Shown: positions 6,488 through 37,520, counted from the stretch's first letter. The stretch: DNA of 40,535 bases from a phage (GCA_032185465.1 GCA_032185465.1_4549.1); one strand, 5' to 3'. Numbers and translations: made by a program. The notes: a model not told the origin generated them from the letters alone.

Positions 6488-6768
6488 TGCTTGACCTCGA
6501 ATCGCAGGTTAGATACTCCGAACTGGTCATAACCAAAGTCGTCTACCAGCTCCTCCTTGATGGTCTTCTTGAGGCCAATTTCAAGGGCAGACTCAGGGCC
6601 TGACTCGATTGCGGTTTTGACCAGAGCCAACTGAAGACCATCCAGCTTCTCACCCTCAGCGTAGGCTTTAGTCATCTCAGCCAGTTGGCGACACATGGTA
6701 TCTTCTTCCTTTGAGTTAACAACCATCTTCAGATCAAAACTCACACGAATACGTTTAGTAATAGCCAT
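6484..6768 (-). CDS. gp5.5-like protein
   Basis: Starts MAITKRIRVSFD at ATG 6768, which overlaps the polymerase stop (TAATG); matches recalled T7 gp5.5 N-terminus. Track ORF extends to 6786. Confidence 0.8.
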   Translation of the reverse strand: MAITKRIRVSFDLKMVVNSKEEDTMCRQLAEMTKAYAEGEKLDGLQLALVKTAIESGPESALEIGLKKTIKEELVDDFGYDQFGVSNLRFEVKQ

Positions 6769-6923
6769 TAGTGACACTCCTTCCACGTTGGTCCAATCTT
6801 ACCTTCGGTATCAAGGACACATTTAAAGTTATAGAACTCACCCACCTTACGCATAGCAAGTTGAGCAATTTCTACTGTACGTTCTGCTATTTCTTGGGTA
6901 CGACAAGCAATCTGTAACTCATC
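6768..6923 (-). CDS. DNA polymerase, exon 2 (C-terminal 51 aa)
   Basis: Translates DELQIACRTQEIAERTVEIAQLAMRKVGEFYNFKCVLDTEGKIGPTWKECH, colinear with the T7 DNA polymerase C-terminus (HDEIQVGCRTEEIAQ...LLDTEGKMGPNWAICH). In frame to stop at 6768-6770. Confidence 0.8.
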   Translation of the reverse strand, partial: DELQIACRTQEIAERTVEIAQLAMRKVGEFYNFKCVLDTEGKIGPTWKECH

Positions 6924-7521
6924 CTTTCTGTATTCTCCCATTACTGGAAGTGTCGGACTATATCATCAGTCTTTGAGGTGACTGTCTGGCGCTTCGGGTT
7001 ACGTGGGAATCTCACCCACGGCCCTACTCCTTTCGGATAGTCTCTACGCCTTCCACTCTCTAATCCACCCACAGGCGGCTGAGAACGACACATTGAATAT
7101 TTCGGCTAACTTCGTTCCAGTACACCCAGTCTCTACCCAGTAGTCTCGTGCTTCTAGCTTCCTAGCAGCGTATCGCTCTTTGTTGGTCTTGACTAAGTGT
7201 GAGTCCCGGTCTAATACTTGTAGATGTTCGACGTTGCAACAAGCTCTATTACGACACTTGTGGTCTACTTCGAAACCGTCAGGTATTGGACCATTAGCTT
7301 TAATCCATACAGTTCTATGATACATCTCAAGGACACCGTTAGTCCTCTTTCGGAAGTATCCATCCTGATTCAATTTATGTGACGTAGGGATTATGCAGCC
7401 AGTCTCAGTGGCCTCAAGAATTAACTTCTTGCCTCTCATACATCCTCCCTATGGCTTGGCTCGGTATTGTCCCATTAGGAGTTCACCGAGTTCACCAGAT
7501 TTAATGTGCACCATGATGTTA
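6924..7521 (-). mobile_element. putative group I intron in the DNA polymerase gene, carrying an HNH homing endonuclease ORF
   Basis: 598 bp separating ...AYMAWVH (followed by in-frame TAA) from DELQIAC..., i.e. splitting the conserved HDE motif. Exon 1 ends in T and the insert ends in G, as expected for group I splice sites. Intron secondary structure not verified. Confidence 0.6.
7044..7439 (-). CDS. HNH homing endonuclease (inside the polymerase insertion)
   Basis: 131 aa with HNH motif HRTVWIKANGPIPDGFEVDHKCRNRACCNVEHLQVL; ATG at 7439. Confidence 0.85.
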   Translation of the reverse strand: MRGKKLILEATETGCIIPTSHKLNQDGYFRKRTNGVLEMYHRTVWIKANGPIPDGFEVDHKCRNRACCNVEHLQVLDRDSHLVKTNKERYAARKLEARDYWVETGCTGTKLAEIFNVSFSAACGWIREWKA

Positions 7522-17443: not shown

Positions 17444-20125
17444 TTAAGCGAATGCAAAGTCTGAAGACAAGATGTCTTCGATATTCAGTTTACCTTTCTT
17501 CGGAAGCTCAGGCAACTTGTCGCGCTGACTTTCATGAAGCTGGTATTCAAACTGCTCGTAGAAGTCAAGCAGCACATCGTTATCGCGGTAAGTCTCTACC
17601 ATCGTCTCACGGACGCCACGGAACAGATACTCAGCGTCAGCCGGGATGGTCCCGAAGCTATCGTGAATCACTGCGAATGACATCACGCCATACTTTCGGT
17701 GAGTGTGGACTACAGTCTTGCGGAGGTGGCTACCATCTTGTGAGTGGACGAAGTTCGGGCTAATGCCTGACTCCTGCTTGTGCTTGTCCAGCTCTTTCTT
17801 CGTACCTTTGTTGACCGTAGGTTGAAGGTTGAAGGACCCTAAGAACATCAGGTTCAGACGAGTGGTATCCTTCTTGCGGTATTCCTGCCAGACCGGGAAC
17901 CCATCAGGTGTGACCCAGTGTACCGGAAGGCATGGCTTCAGGATTTCACCAGTCTTCTTGTCCTTCACTTCAGCAGCCAGCAGCTTGGCGGCACCTTGAA
18001 GCCACTTCATCGCGTCAACCGCAGCAACTACTGTCACACTCACAGCTTCCCAAATCATCTTAGCCATGAAGCGAGACGCTTGGCTTGGCTCGGTGAACAT
18101 TGCTCCCTTACCGGAGTCAATCGCTGGCATCACGGTGTCTTCGAACACTTGGTCGGCGAACCCATACTCTTTCGACCCGTAGGCCAGAGTCATGACCGAG
18201 CGCTTAGTGACCGAGCGAGACATACCGAATTGCAGCCACTGACGCGCAAGACTCTTGGTCCCAAGCTTCAGGCGTTCGCTGATTTCCCCAGTCTTCTTGT
18301 CCTCTACGGTCACCAGCTCGTCGTCCGTACCGCTCAGTAATAGCTCTTTCAACTGGTCTGACACACGGTCTGAGACTATACGGTAGATGTCCTGCACCTG
18401 ACCAGACGGCGTTAAGTTCACTGCATGTCCGCCTACGTGGTCCCTCAGCATCGCGCTGAAGTGCTGAATCCCCGAACACGAGCCGTCGAAGGCAATCGGA
18501 AGTGAGCAATTGTAGGTCAAGCCATGGTTCATCACCCCAGAATACTCGAAGCAAGCCGCTAGGAAGCAGAAGGGGCTGTCCATACTCCCCCACCACTCGA
18601 TGCTGTCCATCGGTGATTTGGCTGCTGCCAGAATGTTCTCGTGATTGTCTTCCACCCATTTGATACGCTCCTCAAAGGTTACCTTATCGACACCCGCGCA
18701 GTTGGCGGTGTGGACTTTAAGCCATTTGAAACCATCCGCCCCGATAGGCTTTCCGACCGCCAGAGTCAGTAGACCCTTCTGCATGTCGTTACCCTGAGGG
18801 TTGAACATCGGGACAGCGTAGACACGACCTCGCCAATCCATGTTGTACGGGAACCAGATGGCCTTAAACTGTGAGAACTTGTTGGCCTGTGATACGATGA
18901 AACTCATGGACAATCTGCGTGACTGTCTGGCCTTCTCGCGGCGATAGATACCAGCAGCAGCCTTCTTCCATGCCTTGAGTTCCTCCTCGGTTTCACCAGA
19001 ATAGTCCTCAGGCTTCAGCGGTTCCATCTGAGGGATGTCATCAATAGGCGTGTTGTTCAGCTTCTCGACCATGTTCACCACGTCCAGAACCTTCTTGTTA
19101 ACTTTCCAAGGTGTATTCTGAATGATGTTCACAGCGTCATAGACTTCAGGCATGTATACGTCTTCATAACGTGCTACCGCAGACTTAGACCCTAAGCGAA
19201 TCAATGGTAACGGTCTGCGACCTTTGGCCCAGTACCCACCACCTACGACACCAGTCCACGGCTTAGGTGGAACGACGCAAGGCTGGTAGACTGGAGCGAT
19301 ACCCGCAAGGCTGAATCCTCGTTGTGCCATCTTCTTGACCCAGAAGTCTGACAGGTGGACCATCTCTACGTCAGCCGCTGCATTACCAGCACCGTACCGC
19401 TTAAGCTCGACCAGTTGTGTTGACTGGATGACAATCTCGAGCATCTTGATGCCAACGTGGACAGCCTCTGTAGGACTCCAAGTCCCCCATGCATCTTCCA
19501 GTTGGCCTTGCTCCAGCATGGACGCCTCGACCGCTTGCATGTAGGCTTTCTTGTAGGATGCCCCAGCTCGCTTGTTCAGGTTCTCAGCTATCGCCTTCTT
19601 GAAGTGCTCCTTCTCTTTGTCACGGATGCGACCGAAGCGGATTTCGTCCTCAAGTGTGCGACCTATCGCGGAGGCCATCGGTGTAATCGGTATCCCTTCA
19701 GGCTTGACCAGCTTGGAGAGTATGACCTTCAGTATGATAACCGCAGCGGACTCACAGGAGATGCGCATAGAGCGGTCCTTTACGGCCTTCTCTTCAGTGC
19801 TCAACATGGTGAACGCTACGCTAGGACGCGAGGTTGACAGCTTCCCGTCTAGGCCTTCGTGCCACTCCCTGACGGCTTGCGCAATCTTAGGGACCAGAGT
19901 CTGCATCAAAGGCTTGGCGACCTGATTGTCTGCCAGTTCCCCGCGCTCAGTCTGCCGCTCAAGGTTCTTGATGAAACGTCGCTCGCCTTCTGTATATGCC
20001 TCATGCTCAAGCTGAAGCTGTTTGACTGCAAGGTCTTGCCCGTAGTGGTCAGCCAGCAGGTTAAACGGCTCAATGGCGTTCGACACATCAGAGAAGTCGT
20101 GTTTGTCAATAGAGATGACGCTCAT
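17444..20125 (-). CDS. T7-type single-subunit DNA-directed RNA polymerase, gp1-like
   Basis: 893 aa; near full-length colinearity with T7 RNAP (KARKSRR, WFPYNMDWRGRVYA, LPLAFDGSCSGIQHFSAMLRD, VTKRSVMTLAYGSKEFGF, PNFVHSQDGSHLRKTVV, HDSFGT, C-terminal FAFA). Confidence 0.98.
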   Translation of the reverse strand: MSVISIDKHDFSDVSNAIEPFNLLADHYGQDLAVKQLQLEHEAYTEGERRFIKNLERQTERGELADNQVAKPLMQTLVPKIAQAVREWHEGLDGKLSTSRPSVAFTMLSTEEKAVKDRSMRISCESAAVIILKVILSKLVKPEGIPITPMASAIGRTLEDEIRFGRIRDKEKEHFKKAIAENLNKRAGASYKKAYMQAVEASMLEQGQLEDAWGTWSPTEAVHVGIKMLEIVIQSTQLVELKRYGAGNAAADVEMVHLSDFWVKKMAQRGFSLAGIAPVYQPCVVPPKPWTGVVGGGYWAKGRRPLPLIRLGSKSAVARYEDVYMPEVYDAVNIIQNTPWKVNKKVLDVVNMVEKLNNTPIDDIPQMEPLKPEDYSGETEEELKAWKKAAAGIYRREKARQSRRLSMSFIVSQANKFSQFKAIWFPYNMDWRGRVYAVPMFNPQGNDMQKGLLTLAVGKPIGADGFKWLKVHTANCAGVDKVTFEERIKWVEDNHENILAAAKSPMDSIEWWGSMDSPFCFLAACFEYSGVMNHGLTYNCSLPIAFDGSCSGIQHFSAMLRDHVGGHAVNLTPSGQVQDIYRIVSDRVSDQLKELLLSGTDDELVTVEDKKTGEISERLKLGTKSLARQWLQFGMSRSVTKRSVMTLAYGSKEYGFADQVFEDTVMPAIDSGKGAMFTEPSQASRFMAKMIWEAVSVTVVAAVDAMKWLQGAAKLLAAEVKDKKTGEILKPCLPVHWVTPDGFPVWQEYRKKDTTRLNLMFLGSFNLQPTVNKGTKKELDKHKQESGISPNFVHSQDGSHLRKTVVHTHRKYGVMSFAVIHDSFGTIPADAEYLFRGVRETMVETYRDNDVLLDFYEQFEYQLHESQRDKLPELPKKGKLNIEDILSSDFAFA

Positions 20126-23562: not shown

Positions 23563-25329
23563 CTAGTGGAACGTAACGTAGGACCCTAGTCCCAGCTCGT
23601 CGTCCGTATCGTGAGTTACCCGGACCCCATTGTCCCAGAACTCAGTGTGGATGGACTCGAAGCCTTTCCGTGGGTTCTCCATCTGTTCCTCCAGCCACTC
23701 CTCAGTGACTTCACGTTCGCCTTTGTTGGCATCCTTAGCCATAGACTCAACGAAGAACTGCACACCGATAGCCAGCGCATCAAGTCGGTCATCGTGTGCC
23801 AATGCTCCACGTTCACGAGAGATACGTGTCATCTGGTAGAAGAGAGAGTAGATAGGATTACGAACACCATCCTTATCAGAGGCAGACTGGTAATCTTGGA
23901 CGATAGCAGCAGCGTTAACGATAAGTCGGTGAGACCCCATGATAGGCTCCAGAACGTCACAGATGCGGAGTTCCTTCTGACCCTTACTCTTCACTTCAGT
24001 TACAGCAGCAGGATGAATACGGGAAGCTACAGGCTTGAATAGCTCAAGGTACATACCATCACCGAAGTTACCCTCAATGACGTATTCGTTGACCTTCCAC
24101 TTACGACCAATCTTAGCCAAGGCTTCCAGCGTAGAGTCTTCATAGCCACCTCGCATACCGCCAACTTCCATAGCGAAGATGTAGCCGTTTAGCTGGTACA
24201 GTACCGCATAACCAGTTTCATCCTTACCACGACCACTAGGGTCAATGACTAGAATCTTCTGGGTGTATGAGCTGAAGGCAGAACCTACAGTCTGATACGT
24301 GTGGTATGAGTCACCCATGAGTCCAACGTTAGGAACGTCCTCACGCTTGTTCTGAGGGTTAGGAAGCCATTGGTATATCATTGGGCTAGACGCTTGGTCC
24401 AAGTCTGCTACGATAAGGTCACGGAGCTTCAGAGGGTACTTCTCGGCATCACTCAGGTTAGGGTTAAGCATGAACTGTAGAGCGAAGCCAGCTTTGCCAT
24501 AGGACAACTCACGTTCCTTCAGGTCCGTATCATCGAATCGTACTTCATCGGTAGGACGCCAGTAGAAGGACTCAGGGTCCTCTTCCAGCTCTGCCTGAAG
24601 CATAGGAGCCAGACGGTCGCCGTAAGACTGCCAGTCCTTCTTATCACGTGGATAACGAGCAGGCCAGATAGTAGTGGTGTATCCACGGCCTTCCAGCTCA
24701 CGATACAAGGTCATCTCATTCTGAGGAGTACCCAGATAGATGATTGTACCTCCCGGCTTCAGGATAGCGTCGAACTCTTTCACAAGCTCTGACAGACGGT
24801 CTCGTGCGGCCTGAGTCGCTGAGTTGTTCGGAACCTCCACGTCATCAGCAATCAGGATGTCAGCACGACTACCAGTCAGCTGACCAGTGATACCAACGGA
24901 CTTAACCGAAGGTGAGTGGTCTGGCTTAGCTGGCCCAACGTCAAAGCTGATAACAGCATCTCGCTGCCCCTGCTTAGGTTTGAGTTCCTGAAGCTGAGGC
25001 ATGAGGTCGATGATTCGCTTGATGAAGATGGAGTTCGCATCGGCTCGTTCCTTTGAGGCCGACACAATCATGAACTTCAAGTCTGGGTTGTTCCATAGCT
25101 TCCAGACCACAAAGCCACAGGTCAGAAACGACTTGCCAATACCACGGAAAGCCTGAAGGATGAAGCGGCGATTATCACCAGCAGCCAGCTTCTTACACAT
25201 ATCTATCTGGCAGCGGGTTGGAACCGGAAGGCTTAGTGCTTTCCAGAGAACGAAGATGAAGAACACGAAGTCGTCCCTCATCCTTTGGGTCATTTCTGCC
25301 TGTCTTTCAGCAGGTGTTTTCTTAGACAT
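23563..25329 (-). CDS. terminase large subunit, gp19-like
   Basis: 588 aa; near full-length colinearity with T7 gp19 ([116 protein letters not shown]). Confidence 0.98.
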
Positions 25330-25759
25330 AGAGTCCCTCCAGCATTAGGTCCCGGACAGCGATAGCCTCCTCTAGAGTGGGACGTGTTGTGCGCATATAG
25401 ACATTCCCGCGTTTAACCTGAATCCTATAACCATTCTGGTGACGGGTAACGCACTTCACTCCAGTCTTAGAGTCATAATGGCTACCAGTATTCCAAGTGT
25501 TTTCGGCGGCAGTAACGAGCCGTAAGTTACTTAAGGTATTATTGATGGGGTTCCTGTCGATGTGGTCTATTTGCATACCATGCGGTATAGGACCATTGGT
25601 TAGTTCCCATATCACACGGTGTGCCCGCTTACTGCCTAGACTTCGTGTCTGTACTATCCAATATCCCATCCGACTTAATGTCCCCACAGGCTTTCCAGTC
25701 CTAACGGAGACCAGACCGGAGGGACTCGCCGGGTCCACTTTGTAGTAATCACTTAACAC
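25322..25759 (-). CDS. HNH homing endonuclease with C-terminal AP2-like DNA-binding domain
   Basis: 145 aa; [41 protein letters not shown] then [30 protein letters not shown] start; overlaps the Rz stop and the terminase start. No T7 gene lies between 18.5 and 19. Confidence 0.85.
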
Positions 25760-32400: not shown

Positions 32401-33357
32401 GGTCAGCGGGTCTACACCAGCACCAATCACACCAGCTGCTAACTGAGCACCAGTCCCAGCCTTGGCCTTCTCTTGGTCCAACTTCTGGTTCTCAAGCGCT
32501 AAGTTAATAAGCTCGGTCAGGTTCTGAGGGGAGCCACCAGTAATGACACCGTAATACTGAGGAAGAACCCCAGCGTTACGAATCTGGTCCAGCTCCTCGC
32601 GAGTCCACTTATGGTTGTTCCAGCGGGTCGGGTTGAACACATCGCCAATGACATCAAGTGAGTCCTCGGTCTGACCAGCGCGGATAGCCACGCCGACCAT
32701 AGAGTTCTTCACTTCAGCTTCTGTAGCCGAGCCGAAACCGAACCACGTAGAGCGATCCTCTCGTTCCTGCATGGTCTCGCCAGTAGACTTATAGAACATC
32801 TCACCGAACGATTCGTTGGGAGCTTCAGGTGCTTGACCCTCAATGTTTAGACCAGCAGCGGTCGGAAGGTTCTCACCCAGAGCTACTTTAGGTTTAGCCT
32901 TGAGTCCTTCCGTGAGTGCGTCAAATACGTTAGCGCTTACTGGTGGAGTCTTTGGGCTGATACCGTTGAGTGCTCTTGCGACTCCCTGCTGATAGACTTC
33001 AGGATTGTACCGGGAGCCTGTCTCATGGAAGCTAATAGCTTGCGCCAGAGCAGACAGGGTGTCCGGGTTCGATAGGTCGAGACTTTGGGTAGCTGGAATA
33101 CCAGTTGCAGCCACCACTGAGTCGATATAAGCCTTAGTGTCGTTCTCGTTAGGAGGTGCCCATCGGTTGATAATCTTCTCGATGGAGTCATAGCCTTGGC
33201 GACCGTAGGACAGCAGGTTTTTACCTAAAGCTCGGACGCCAGACTCTGGACTATCGAAGATAACGAAATCGCCATCATCACCTATAGCACCTTCCCATTG
33301 GTCTTTGGACTTACGGATGTTCCCGGGGTTTGAGTTCCTTACTCCACGTGTCGCCAT
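29470..33357 (-). CDS. internal virion protein D, gp16-like (ejection protein)
   Basis: 1295 aa; long colinear blocks with recalled T7 gp16 (GGSPENL, RLEARETARN, VRSPTGMQSGASGK, RREMMENPA, GTYVPHVY, EARNLFDSD, VNGDIAIMG, KILTGRARR, AMDLWR, LRPHK). N-terminal about 140 aa does not show the T7 SLT catalytic motif. Confidence 0.95.
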   Translation of the reverse strand: MATRGVRNSNPGNIRKSKDQWEGAIGDDGDFVIFDSPESGVRALGKNLLSYGRQGYDSIEKIINRWAPPNENDTKAYIDSVVAATGIPATQSLDLSNPDTLSALAQAISFHETGSRYNPEVYQQGVARALNGISPKTPPVSANVFDALTEGLKAKPKVALGENLPTAAGLNIEGQAPEAPNESFGEMFYKSTGETMQEREDRSTWFGFGSATEAEVKNSMVGVAIRAGQTEDSLDVIGDVFNPTRWNNHKWTREELDQIRNAGVLPQYYGVITGGSPQNLTELINLALENQKLDQEKAKAGTGAQLAAGVIGAGVDPLTYVPIAGQVGKGAKLVNKMFTVAAQSGALAGVSEMARTSVAGGDAHVSEAILGGALFGGGMTAIADGLGRALGRNTNEFAGPATRLEARETARNVDGQDLSRLPIQEGEQTFSHQGVKFADVPNEPGSVRLEDGSILIGENPLNPKTRQVFDEVIEPERAAAGVNLGGLTEIGLKLLRSENPEIRGVAADLVRSPTGMQSGASGKIGTTASDVFERLRAVDHRFYNDIDDAVTEALKDPYLQTAFWRDSGAFRQDIYQRVSMAIEDGSGNLKAELTPGELKVYDLLKNQFDAKREMMENPAMFGRPDAQSIFPGSRFKGTYVPHVYSKQMKELYTKELGSPEALQEAIKKSWLTSYASRPEVKKRVDEALLESDPTLTPEGLAAAVDKYANDKAYGISHTEQFERSSVMEENINGLVGLENNSFLEARNLFDSDMSIVLPNGQTFSVNNLREWDMDKIVPAYNRRVNGDIAIMAGTGKTTKDMKDLVETMMNKAGDDGKLKGEVSTLRDTLKILTGRARRDGADDAAFAAVMRTMTDLAFFAKNAYMGVQNLTEIGGMLARGNVRAMLHGVPMFRDLAFRNKKVGASEIKDLHNVLFGKELDDSIRPSKQDVIDRLRSYSDLGRGTATALGTAKYYTGELAVRSPFTKVLNGTTNYLLDAGRQGFLSDIVEHSLTGSKRKFDDRWLKTAGISDEQWKGIKSLIRESVTRGPDGKYTIKDKKAFSQDPRAMDLWRMGDTIADETLLRPHKLSNMNAKAYGPLAKTVLQFKNFVIKSINGRTMRTFYNATKNNRAMDAALSTVMSMGLAGIYYMAQAHVKAYAMQDGRDRDYLKQALDPTMIGYAALSRSSHLGGPLGVANILGGIAGYEDTKMLRSSILPRSPTEKPERAISYGAATSDPVMNVVGNFLEQVPAFGYAANVGASAYNLAGYLKADTRVNERDYMTGMYNTFRELVPNDPITQKLLLGTFEEQGIHIKD

Positions 33358-33788
33358 GTCTTTCTCCTCAAGATATTTCTAATAGAAACCGTACTCACTC
33401 CATAGCGTTCAGCCAAGAGTGAAACCTTTAGGTCGCTGGACCTTATGTCTCTAACAATGTCTTCCGTTAGTTTAGACACTCCGATTGAGCATCCGGCAGC
33501 TTGCCGACCTCTGGACACCTTATCTTTAATGTTGTCAGCTTGTGTGCCGACTTCAAGATGCTCAGGGTTTACACATGACGGGTTGTCACACTTATGGCGA
33601 ACAACATATCCATCCGGTATTGGACCATGAGCTAGCTCGTAGGCCAGCCTATGCGCTCCGTGTTTAACTCTATTTATCATAATACGACCATATCCGTTCT
33701 TCTCAACACTTCCTATGAAGCGAATACAGCCAGAGTCTTCAGCTACTGACAGTTCTGCCAGTCTCTCACTGGCTGTCCCGTTCTTCAT
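33339..33788 (-). CDS. HNH homing endonuclease between gp15 and gp16
   Basis: 149 aa; HRLAYELAHGPIPDGYVVRHKCDNPSCVNPEHLEVGTQADN; ATG 2 nt after gp15 stop; 3' end overlaps gp16 start. Same family as the intron-encoded HNH. Confidence 0.85.
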   Translation of the reverse strand: MKNGTASERLAELSVAEDSGCIRFIGSVEKNGYGRIMINRVKHGAHRLAYELAHGPIPDGYVVRHKCDNPSCVNPEHLEVGTQADNIKDKVSRGRQAAGCSIGVSKLTEDIVRDIRSSDLKVSLLAERYGVSTVSIRNILRRKTWRHVE

Positions 33789-36675: not shown

Positions 36676-37062
36676 CTAATCCCCCTTCCGGCTTGTAGCC
36701 AGATACTCAGCAGCCTTACCATCGAAATCTTCGCATGTAGAGTGGTAGTTTCTACGGGTCAGCTTTAGGTTGCAGGTATGACATAGGATTCCTCGGACTT
36801 TCCCGGAGGTGTGACAGTGGTCAACGCATAATCCTCGGCTAGTTCCTAATGTCTTGCAGATTGCGCAGACCCCGCCCTGCTCTTTTAGGATGGAATCATA
36901 TTCTATCTGCGTAATGTGATACTTCTCGTATCCCTTGTTCTTGTGGCTCCGTCCATTATGACACAGCTTACAGGCAGAGCGTACACCACACTTAGAGTCT
37001 TTCCGTGGAGAGAACGCTTCTAGTGGCTTTTCAATTTTACAGACGGTACAGACCTTAGTCAC
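36676..37062 (-). CDS. endonuclease VII-type (HNH-like) nuclease inserted between gp13 and gp14
   Basis: [36 protein letters not shown] resembles the T4 endonuclease VII core. No ATG in the ORF; likely GTG 37062 overlapping the upstream stop (GTGA) with AAGGAGGA 5 nt upstream. Track start is GTG 37125. Confidence 0.75.
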
Positions 37063-37520
37063 GTGTCCTCCTTGGTGATTGTGAATAGAATGAATACTTC
37101 TCCAGTCACTGGACTTCTGGTCCACTTATCGTCGTGGAACTTAGCGCCTATTGACTTGAGAAACCGGATGTGAGACGTATTTCCTTCCCAGACGTAGTTC
37201 CATAGTACCGGATAGTCCTCCAGCATCTTGTCACGATACTCCATGATTCTCTCACGGAACTCTCGCTTACCTTTAGGCTGGAGACGCTCTGTCATTCTGG
37301 TAGTCAGGAACCAAACGTTGTCACCGTGGTTGCCACCATAGGCATATATCTCTCCAAGAGCGTTAGTCAAAACCACAGATGAAGACGTTAGGTGTGCTTG
37401 TAACCTTTCAGTGAGACCTTCAAGGGTCCCATAGTTGGCTTTACACTCCTCTAAGTCGTCATCTGTAAGTTGTGCAGCAGCGTACCAAACGTCTACATCT
37501 GTAGCCTTGCGAATATACAT
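37059..37520 (-). CDS. hypothetical protein in the gene 13 position (possible internal virion/assembly protein)
   Basis: 153 aa, ATG with AAGGAG upstream, directly after the phi13-like promoter. Assignment is positional only. Confidence 0.5.

Follow-up and report, generated by a model that had tools for sequence, protein, structure and literature searches.

The DNA polymerase gene (gene 5) of a K1F-like Kayfunavirus coliphage is interrupted by a 598-nt insert that is, with a probability of roughly 95%, a group I intron of the IA2 type, self-splicing and mobile. The whole stretch of DNA analyzed here (the window, 40,535 nucleotides) is the complete, circularly permuted genome of this member of Autographiviridae, whose genes lie on the minus strand. 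Such an insert is nothing new: it is annotated in K1F and its relatives, and the class to which it belongs is established experimentally in phages PhiI and W31. Our analysis adds a base-resolved fold with covariation, a co-conversion pattern, and the mis-annotation of the exons in many database records.

Interruption of the Polymerase Gene

The original prediction placed the end of the polymerase open reading frame directly after ...AYMAWVH, within the HDE motif of the active site, and the coordinates hold to the base: the last codon of exon 1 is CAT at 7524-7522, and TAA follows directly on the minus strand at 7521-7519 (Table 1). Exon 2 opens with GAT GAG (Asp-Glu) at 6923 and runs to a stop at 6768, giving the product DELQIACRTQEIAE...GKIGPTWKECH. 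The distance at which the C terminus was said to resume, 598 bp, is exact, but the claim that it resumes in frame does not stand; 598 is 3 × 199 + 1, and the exon frames therefore meet only once the insert is removed. As had also been noted, exon 1 ends in T (7522) and the insert in G (6924). At the other end of the gene, homology to CLB_P1 and IME177 makes ATG 9537 (MFDLKS...) the most likely start codon and disfavors GTG 9573, an upstream start suggested by a mechanical ORF call.

The conceptually spliced protein has 723 amino acids, is 55% identical to T7 gp5, and aligns to it without gaps across ...FAYMAWVHDEIQVGCRT... and FAYMAWVHDE(L/I)Q. We searched for the boundaries with a query of 356 nt of the spliced junction, which gave one uninterrupted match at 91-94% identity in many intronless Kayfunavirus genomes (Peacock, PSK1, SEA1f, yong1, and others) and two matches, 598 nt apart, in intron-bearing genomes. 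In the intronless alleles of Peacock, SEA1f, and yong1 as well as in T7, ...TGGGTnCAy is followed without interruption by GAyGAr.... As the bases flanking each boundary differ, the junction cannot slide, and since T7 gp5 and the intronless alleles read through, the intron boundaries are fixed to the base and are no chance arrangement. The predicted spliced RNA reads ...UGGGUGCAU joined to GAUGAGUUA... (also written as ...TGGGTGCAT joined to GATGAGTTACAG...), with ...AYMAWVHDELQIACR as the spanning peptide, and the insertion point separates His from Asp in the HDE triad of polymerase motif C.

That both coding halves belong to one protein, and nothing more, would fit a solution at the level of protein or translation, whether an intein, reading through the stop codon, or bypassing of the insert by ribosomes. 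The TAA right after the His codon and the 3n+1 length of the insert, which puts exon 2 in a different genomic frame, exclude an intein or read-through, and a Pfam search found no Hint/intein domain in the insert, whose HNH_3 domain reads in its own frame. Ribosomes bypass 50 nt in T4 gene 60, and an insert of 598 nt greatly exceeds the distances known to be bypassed. We give these explanations no weight and retain an RNA-level solution, a group I intron.

Table 1. Gene 5 and its intron in the window, with the paired elements of the predicted ribozyme
Feature	Coordinates	Strand	Basis or remarks
Gene 5 exon 1 (family A DNA polymerase), ends ...AYMAWVH	7522..9537	minus	672 codons; Pfam DNA_pol_A, E 2.7e-27
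Very probable group I intron, IA2-type architecture, 598 nt	6924..7521	minus	Rfam RF00028; intronless alleles; covariation
Ribozyme 5' half	7440..7521	minus	P1 guide, P10 guide, 5' strands of P3-P6a; pair counts
Putative HNH homing endonuclease ORF, 131 aa, in P6a loop	7044..7439	minus	Pfam HNH_3; T3 gp5.3 homology; dN/dS
Ribozyme 3' half	6924..7043	minus	P7 to omega-G; pair counts
Gene 5 exon 2, DELQIACRT...TWKECH	6768..6923	minus	51 codons + stop; T7 gp5 alignment
P1, exon GUGCAU with internal guide GUGCAC	7527-7522 with 7511-7506	minus	U7522.G7511 wobble at 5' splice site
P10, guide UCAU with exon 2 AUGA	7516-7513 with 6922-6919	minus	
P3	7499-7493 with 6991-6985	minus	
P4	7490-7484 with 7466-7460	minus	
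P5	7480-7477 with 7473-7470	minus	
P6	7459-7458 with 7050-7049	minus	
P6a	7454-7451 with 7056-7053	minus	ORF in its loop
P7, GACUAU with AUAGUC	7042-7037 with 6961-6956	minus	P3/P7 pseudoknot
P7.1, CCGAAAGG	7036-7029	minus	Invariant in set
P7.2	7024-6996	minus	3 pairs with compensatory changes
P8	6983-6968	minus	
P9, GUAA loop	6950-6935	minus	
omega-G	6924	minus	

Ribozyme Fold and Covariation

A search of the minus strand with Rfam, a check named in the original prediction, matched RF00028 at 7531..6934 along the entire model (positions 1-253) with 35.8 bits, below the gathering score of 50, which is a curated cut-off and no biological defining feature. The E-value was 3e-7 when the region alone was searched and 1.2e-5 for the entire window, and RF00028 was the sole non-tRNA Rfam match within the window. 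The ORF was aligned as one long insertion, and the low score is likely due to these 396 nt inserted in P6a.

We derived a fold by hand on the window sequence and verified its coordinates (Table 1). All core helices are intact, and the presence of P7.1 and P7.2 gives the intron an IA2 architecture, as reported for PhiI and W31. A P2 helix is absent from the window intron, and the relatives in WAG25P1 and RCIP0053 bear an added hairpin at that position. The terminal G6924 (omega-G) was invariant in 14 of the 14 introns examined, and the P1 pairing was kept in all 11 homologues of the alignment described below.

Covariation was assessed in an alignment of 11 distinct homologous mini-introns, stripped of their ORFs and extended by 9-10 nt of each exon, and counted over 59 pairs in P1, P3, P4, P5, P6/P6a, P7, P7.1, P7.2, P8, P9, and P10. 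Standard pairs were formed in 98.8% of the 642 cells, 22 of the 59 pairs had changed on both sides, and none of 500 shuffles reached any of the observed measures. When the 3' partners were slid by 1-3 columns, pairing fell to 35-46% and at most 6 compensatory pairs remained; because the fold was drawn on the window sequence, the proportion of paired cells is inflated in this comparison, but the compensatory counts are not. The compensatory changes are located in P1, P3 (5 of 7 pairs), P5, P6, P6a, P7.2, P8, P9, and P10, while P7, P7.1, and the greater part of P4 do not vary in the set and are thus uninformative, neither supported nor contradicted. Changes also track the flanking exons: a G-C pair of P1 becomes A-U where exon 1 reads AUGCAU (Vp_R1, ECBP2), and an A-U pair of P10 becomes G-C where exon 2 starts GAC. 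P10 spans 4 bp in the window, and in relatives it can reach 8 bp. With the U.G pair in P1, the terminal G, a P3-P9 core with covariation, and an HNH ORF in P6a, the insert bears out the proposal of a group I intron, and the fold described here answers the question of whether a group I core can be detected.

The fold also bears on the idea that the gene is in pieces, that is, that a free-standing HNH gene splits the polymerase and two polypeptides assemble without RNA splicing (compare the mobE-split nrdA of phage Aeh1). The products would be a protein of 684 or 672 aa and a 57-aa "gp5.4" starting from ATG 6941. An ATG-initiated ORF is present in the window at 6941..6768, and exon 2 has a CDS of its own in several GenBank records, among them K1F AM084414 and CLB_P1, where it is named gp5.4. 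However, a simple insertion of an endonuclease gene has no need of a ribozyme fold with 22 compensatory pairs in the noncoding flanks of the ORF, and the split separates H from D in the catalytic HDE. ATG 6941 itself lies inside the 3' strand of P9, has no Shine-Dalgarno sequence upstream, and is missing from the 13a-type intron, which reads AAUAGG there. Finally, according to PMC3428280, Bonocora and Shub (2004) reported in vitro as well as in vivo splicing for the homologous same-site introns of PhiI and W31. We therefore consider a gene in pieces very improbable and keep to the spliced intron. The gp5.4 candidate (6768-6941, minus strand; 57 aa, MGEYRKDELQ...) consists of exon 2 preceded by six intron-derived codons; as its ATG lies in the 3' strand of P9, we rejected it as a gene and regard it as an annotation artefact.

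The HNH Open Reading Frame

An HNH ORF had been predicted inside the insert at 7044..7439, and one of 131 aa was found exactly there; its Pfam match to HNH_3 (57.6 bits, cut-off 24.8, E 9e-16) is the only one in the insert. The ORF start is preceded by a Shine-Dalgarno sequence, GGGAGG, and the motif ..VDHKC.NR.CCN.EHL.....H..K.N is conserved among 8 homologues. The last codons, W-K-A-stop, double as the 3' strands of P6a and P6. At the protein level, the ORF is 76% identical to that of the 13a intron, 56-69% to more distant intron ORFs, and 45% to the T3-5.3-like gene product of IME177. The dN/dS ratio was 0.06 between the K1F and 13a lineages, where synonymous sites are near saturation, and 0.17 against CHRF_10037, and between the K1F and 13a types the ribozyme halves are 85-94% and the ORF 71% identical. 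The low dN/dS of the ORF and the conservation of the ribozyme halves indicate that protein and RNA are both under selection.

T3 gp5.3 (F-TslI) shares a homologous HNH core with the ORF (51% identity over 95 aa) and adjoins the same target gene, but it is free-standing and outside any ribozyme, and such free-standing forms are without the conserved C-terminal tail of ~30 aa (..TGTKLAEIF.VSFSAAC.WIREWK) of the intron ORFs. T7 gp5.3 was rejected as a homologue, as it is unrelated (14% identity) and only the T3-type 5.3 is homologous. A PDB sequence search with the ORF returned nothing meaningful, and no solved structure was detectable by sequence. From homology to I-TslI and T3 gp5.3, we infer that the ORF encodes an HNH homing endonuclease with a corresponding activity and target. 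Bonocora and Shub are said to have found in 2009 that T3 gp5.3 cuts intronless polymerase genes at the position of I-TslI. I-TslI itself is reported to be a nickase whose core site measures 9 bp (Bonocora and Shub 2009, as cited in PMC8136825).

The intron could alternatively be decayed or host dependent, with a relic fold that no longer self-splices efficiently or an inactive HNH ORF, leaving the element immobile. The first position of P10 in the K1F type is indeed a G-G mismatch, which weakens the helix to the 4 remaining pairs. Against decay stand the intact core helices, the full-length ORF with its intact HNH motif and dN/dS of 0.06-0.17, and the near identity of the intron across diverged backbones. 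Moreover, many isolated, plaque-forming phages carry this intron type, and T7-like phages require gene 5. We judge decay to be extremely unlikely and favor a mobile intron that is still able to splice.

Relatives and Distribution

With blastn, we found the intron in 77 phage records. Introns of the K1F type, at least 96% identical to ours, occur in K1F, CLB_P1, Ro45lw, PR_Kaz2018, CHX131, and NS1; that of CHRF_10037 is 85% identical, and a 601-nt type with ~80% identity occurs in Teseptimavirus and Yersinia phages (13a, WX2, AH67C600_Q5, and several Bas phages). The introns of K1F, CLB_P1, Ro45lw, PR_Kaz2018, and CHX131 agree with the window in length (598 nt), insertion point, and the 131-aa HNH ORF and are 99.2-99.7% identical to it, the 3-5 point differences all being within the ORF; the window backbone, on the other hand, is closest to IME177.

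The window intron resembles those of PhiI and W31 (I-TslI) by description: these lie in gene 5 between H and DE of the motif, at site 881 (numbered as in E. coli Pol I), are of the IA2 type with P7.1 and P7.2, and carry the HNH ORF in P6a (PMC3428280). The 13a-type intron served as a stand-in for the PhiI and W31 sequences, and the 601-nt intron of 13a, WX2, and AH67C600_Q5 is probably of the PhiI/W31 lineage. In comparison with the 13a type, the window intron has a shorter P1 loop and a weaker P10, and the stop after exon 1 is an immediate UAA, whereas that of the 13a type comes after 8 codons. Group I introns with HNH genes also occur in the family A polymerases of SPO1, SP82, and Bastille (I-HmuI, I-HmuII, I-BasI) and of Pf-WMP3 (I-PfoP3I), but at sites 674-676 rather than 881 in the E. 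coli numbering (PMC3428280), and blastn with the window intron gave no detectable match to these four.

The suggestion that the insert belongs to a class known from T7-like phages is thus confirmed by the site 881 shared with PhiI and W31 and by 99.2% identity to the K1F intron. By contrast, the insertion site and the endonuclease, which the original prediction held to be worth documenting, are both already on record. GenBank entries DQ111067 (K1F, 2005) and KC109329 (CLB_P1) and that of 13a join the polymerase CDS across the insert, with the ORF annotated as a homing endonuclease, and the CDS is likewise joined in the Ro45lw record. The K1F insert has been called a putative group I intron (PMC4925675), and the site and ORF of the PhiI and W31 introns are those given above. 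Papers that cite the work on this intron class include PMC3428280, PMC8136825, PMC10448857, and PMC4925675.

Two Kayfunavirus phages, BUCT788 and PDP351P3, carry the 601-nt 13a-type intron together with a T7-like start of exon 2, GATGAGATTCAAGTAG, which suggests that the intron passed from one genus to another and that exon sequence was co-converted along with it. Farther relatives of the intron, likewise inserted between H and DE, were seen in Aeromonas phage PT2 (Studiervirinae), Vibrio phage Vp_R1 (Grimontviridae), ECBP2 and SU7 (Gordonclarkvirinae), and the podophages Edwardsiella WAG25P1 and Klebsiella RCIP0053; among the records of PT2, Vp_R1, ECBP2, WAG25P1, and RCIP0053, most list the exons as separate "DNA polymerase" or "hypothetical" CDSs. 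In Salmonella phage Arash (OQ632216), a stretch at ~1376-1592 has no endonuclease ORF and shares ~74% identity with the ribozyme's 3' half. It splits a family A polymerase elsewhere, near motif B (between ...AKSVTF and GLLYG...), with the halves annotated as "DNA polymerase nu" and "theta," and probably represents a related group I intron that lacks an ORF.

Signature of Mobility

Both intron-bearing and intronless alleles of gene 5 occur within Kayfunavirus. Over the backbone, the window shows 92-96% identity to CLB_P1 and ~95% to IME177, the latter across 93% of the first 25 kb. The intron is 99.2-99.7% identical to those of K1F, CLB_P1, and Ro45lw, in comparison with 94.1-96.3% in the adjacent 356 nt of exon, and finding nearly the same intron in diverged backbones suggests that its transfer was recent. 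From -50 to +156 around the insertion site, intron included, the window and CLB_P1 differ at 4 of 804 positions, and outside this tract their identity is 88-96%. Relative to IME177, the upstream part of exon 1 is 97.6-98.6% identical, above the value for CLB_P1; the last 200 nt of exon 1 drop to 83%, 58%, and 77% in successive bins, and exon 2 has no match. These patterns in the alignments point to the intron and short exon tracts having been copied into an IME177-like backbone by recent homing with co-conversion.

IME177 (MZ398247) has a single intronless polymerase CDS of 2172 nt at 16548-18719 (minus strand) and, directly after it, a free-standing T3-gp5.3-like HNH gene of 108 aa at 16212-16538 (minus strand). 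In the window, the intron is present and the free-standing copy absent, which parallels the pair of PhiI (intronic) and T3 (free-standing). Bonocora and Shub are said to have proposed intronic and free-standing states of the endonuclease in the origin of mobile introns. A more specific course of events, in which a very recent homing event overwrote the 3' end of an IME177-like intronless polymerase gene with a K1F/CLB_P1-type patch (about -50 to +156) and thereby removed a free-standing T3-5.3-type HNH gene, seems to us doubtful.

Other Features of the Genome

Besides the intron ORF, the genome has three free-standing genes of homing-endonuclease type, all on the minus strand and in segments absent from CLB_P1 and IME177: an HNH_3 gene between gp15 and gp16 (33339-33788), an Endonuclease_7 gene between gp13 and gp14 (36676-37125), and an HNH_3 gene between an Rz-like gene and the large terminase (25322-25759). 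Genes of this type thus number at least four with the intron ORF. Just upstream of the primase/helicase gene 4, a tRNA-like gene lies at 11535-11613 (minus strand); ARAGORN calls it a 79-nt tRNA-Thr with anticodon CGT, and it reaches 36.7 bits against an Rfam tRNA cut-off of 29. Tracts aligning to 11533-11677 were found in neither CLB_P1 nor IME177, and the element is 97-100% identical in many other Kayfunavirus, annotated as tRNA-Thr, tRNA-OTHER, or tRNA-Pseudo. Elements like this are unusual in T7-like phages.

Discussion

By homology to PhiI and W31, we infer that the intron splices in this phage, and the fold allows the steps to be laid out at base resolution. Gene 5 would be transcribed as a single pre-mRNA, in which the guide GUGCAC would pair with the exon 1 end GUGCAU to form P1, with U.G at the splice site, and the P3-P9 core with P7.1 and P7.2 would fold. 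An external guanosine would then attack after U7522 and the freed 3'-OH of exon 1 after G6924, with P10 holding exon 2, so that CAU is joined to GAU and the catalytic HDE of motif C is restored. On unspliced RNA, ribosomes would be expected to halt at UAA 7521-7519, before they enter the ribozyme core. In a mixed infection, the HNH product would be expected to cut or nick polymerase alleles without the intron, either exactly where it inserts or close by, and repair off intron-bearing genomes would bring in the intron along with short stretches of the adjoining exons, the process known as homing.

The window provides one more copy of a well-characterized selfish element, and the mechanism is not new. 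For annotation, the polymerase should be described as one protein of 723 aa joined at 7522/6923, and gp5.4 should not be listed as a gene. The exons are still listed as separate proteins in the records of BUCT788, CHRF_10037, WX2, AH67C600_Q5, ECBP2, Vp_R1, WAG25P1, and RCIP0053.

For the biology of these phages, the locus illustrates co-conversion cleanly, as well as the contrast between an intron-borne and a free-standing endonuclease at one target site. The same-site intron in polymerase genes of Grimontviridae and Gordonclarkvirinae would imply transfer between phage families. If intronic and free-standing endonucleases with the same target do systematically displace each other in Kayfunavirus, the genus would hold a natural record of their competition.
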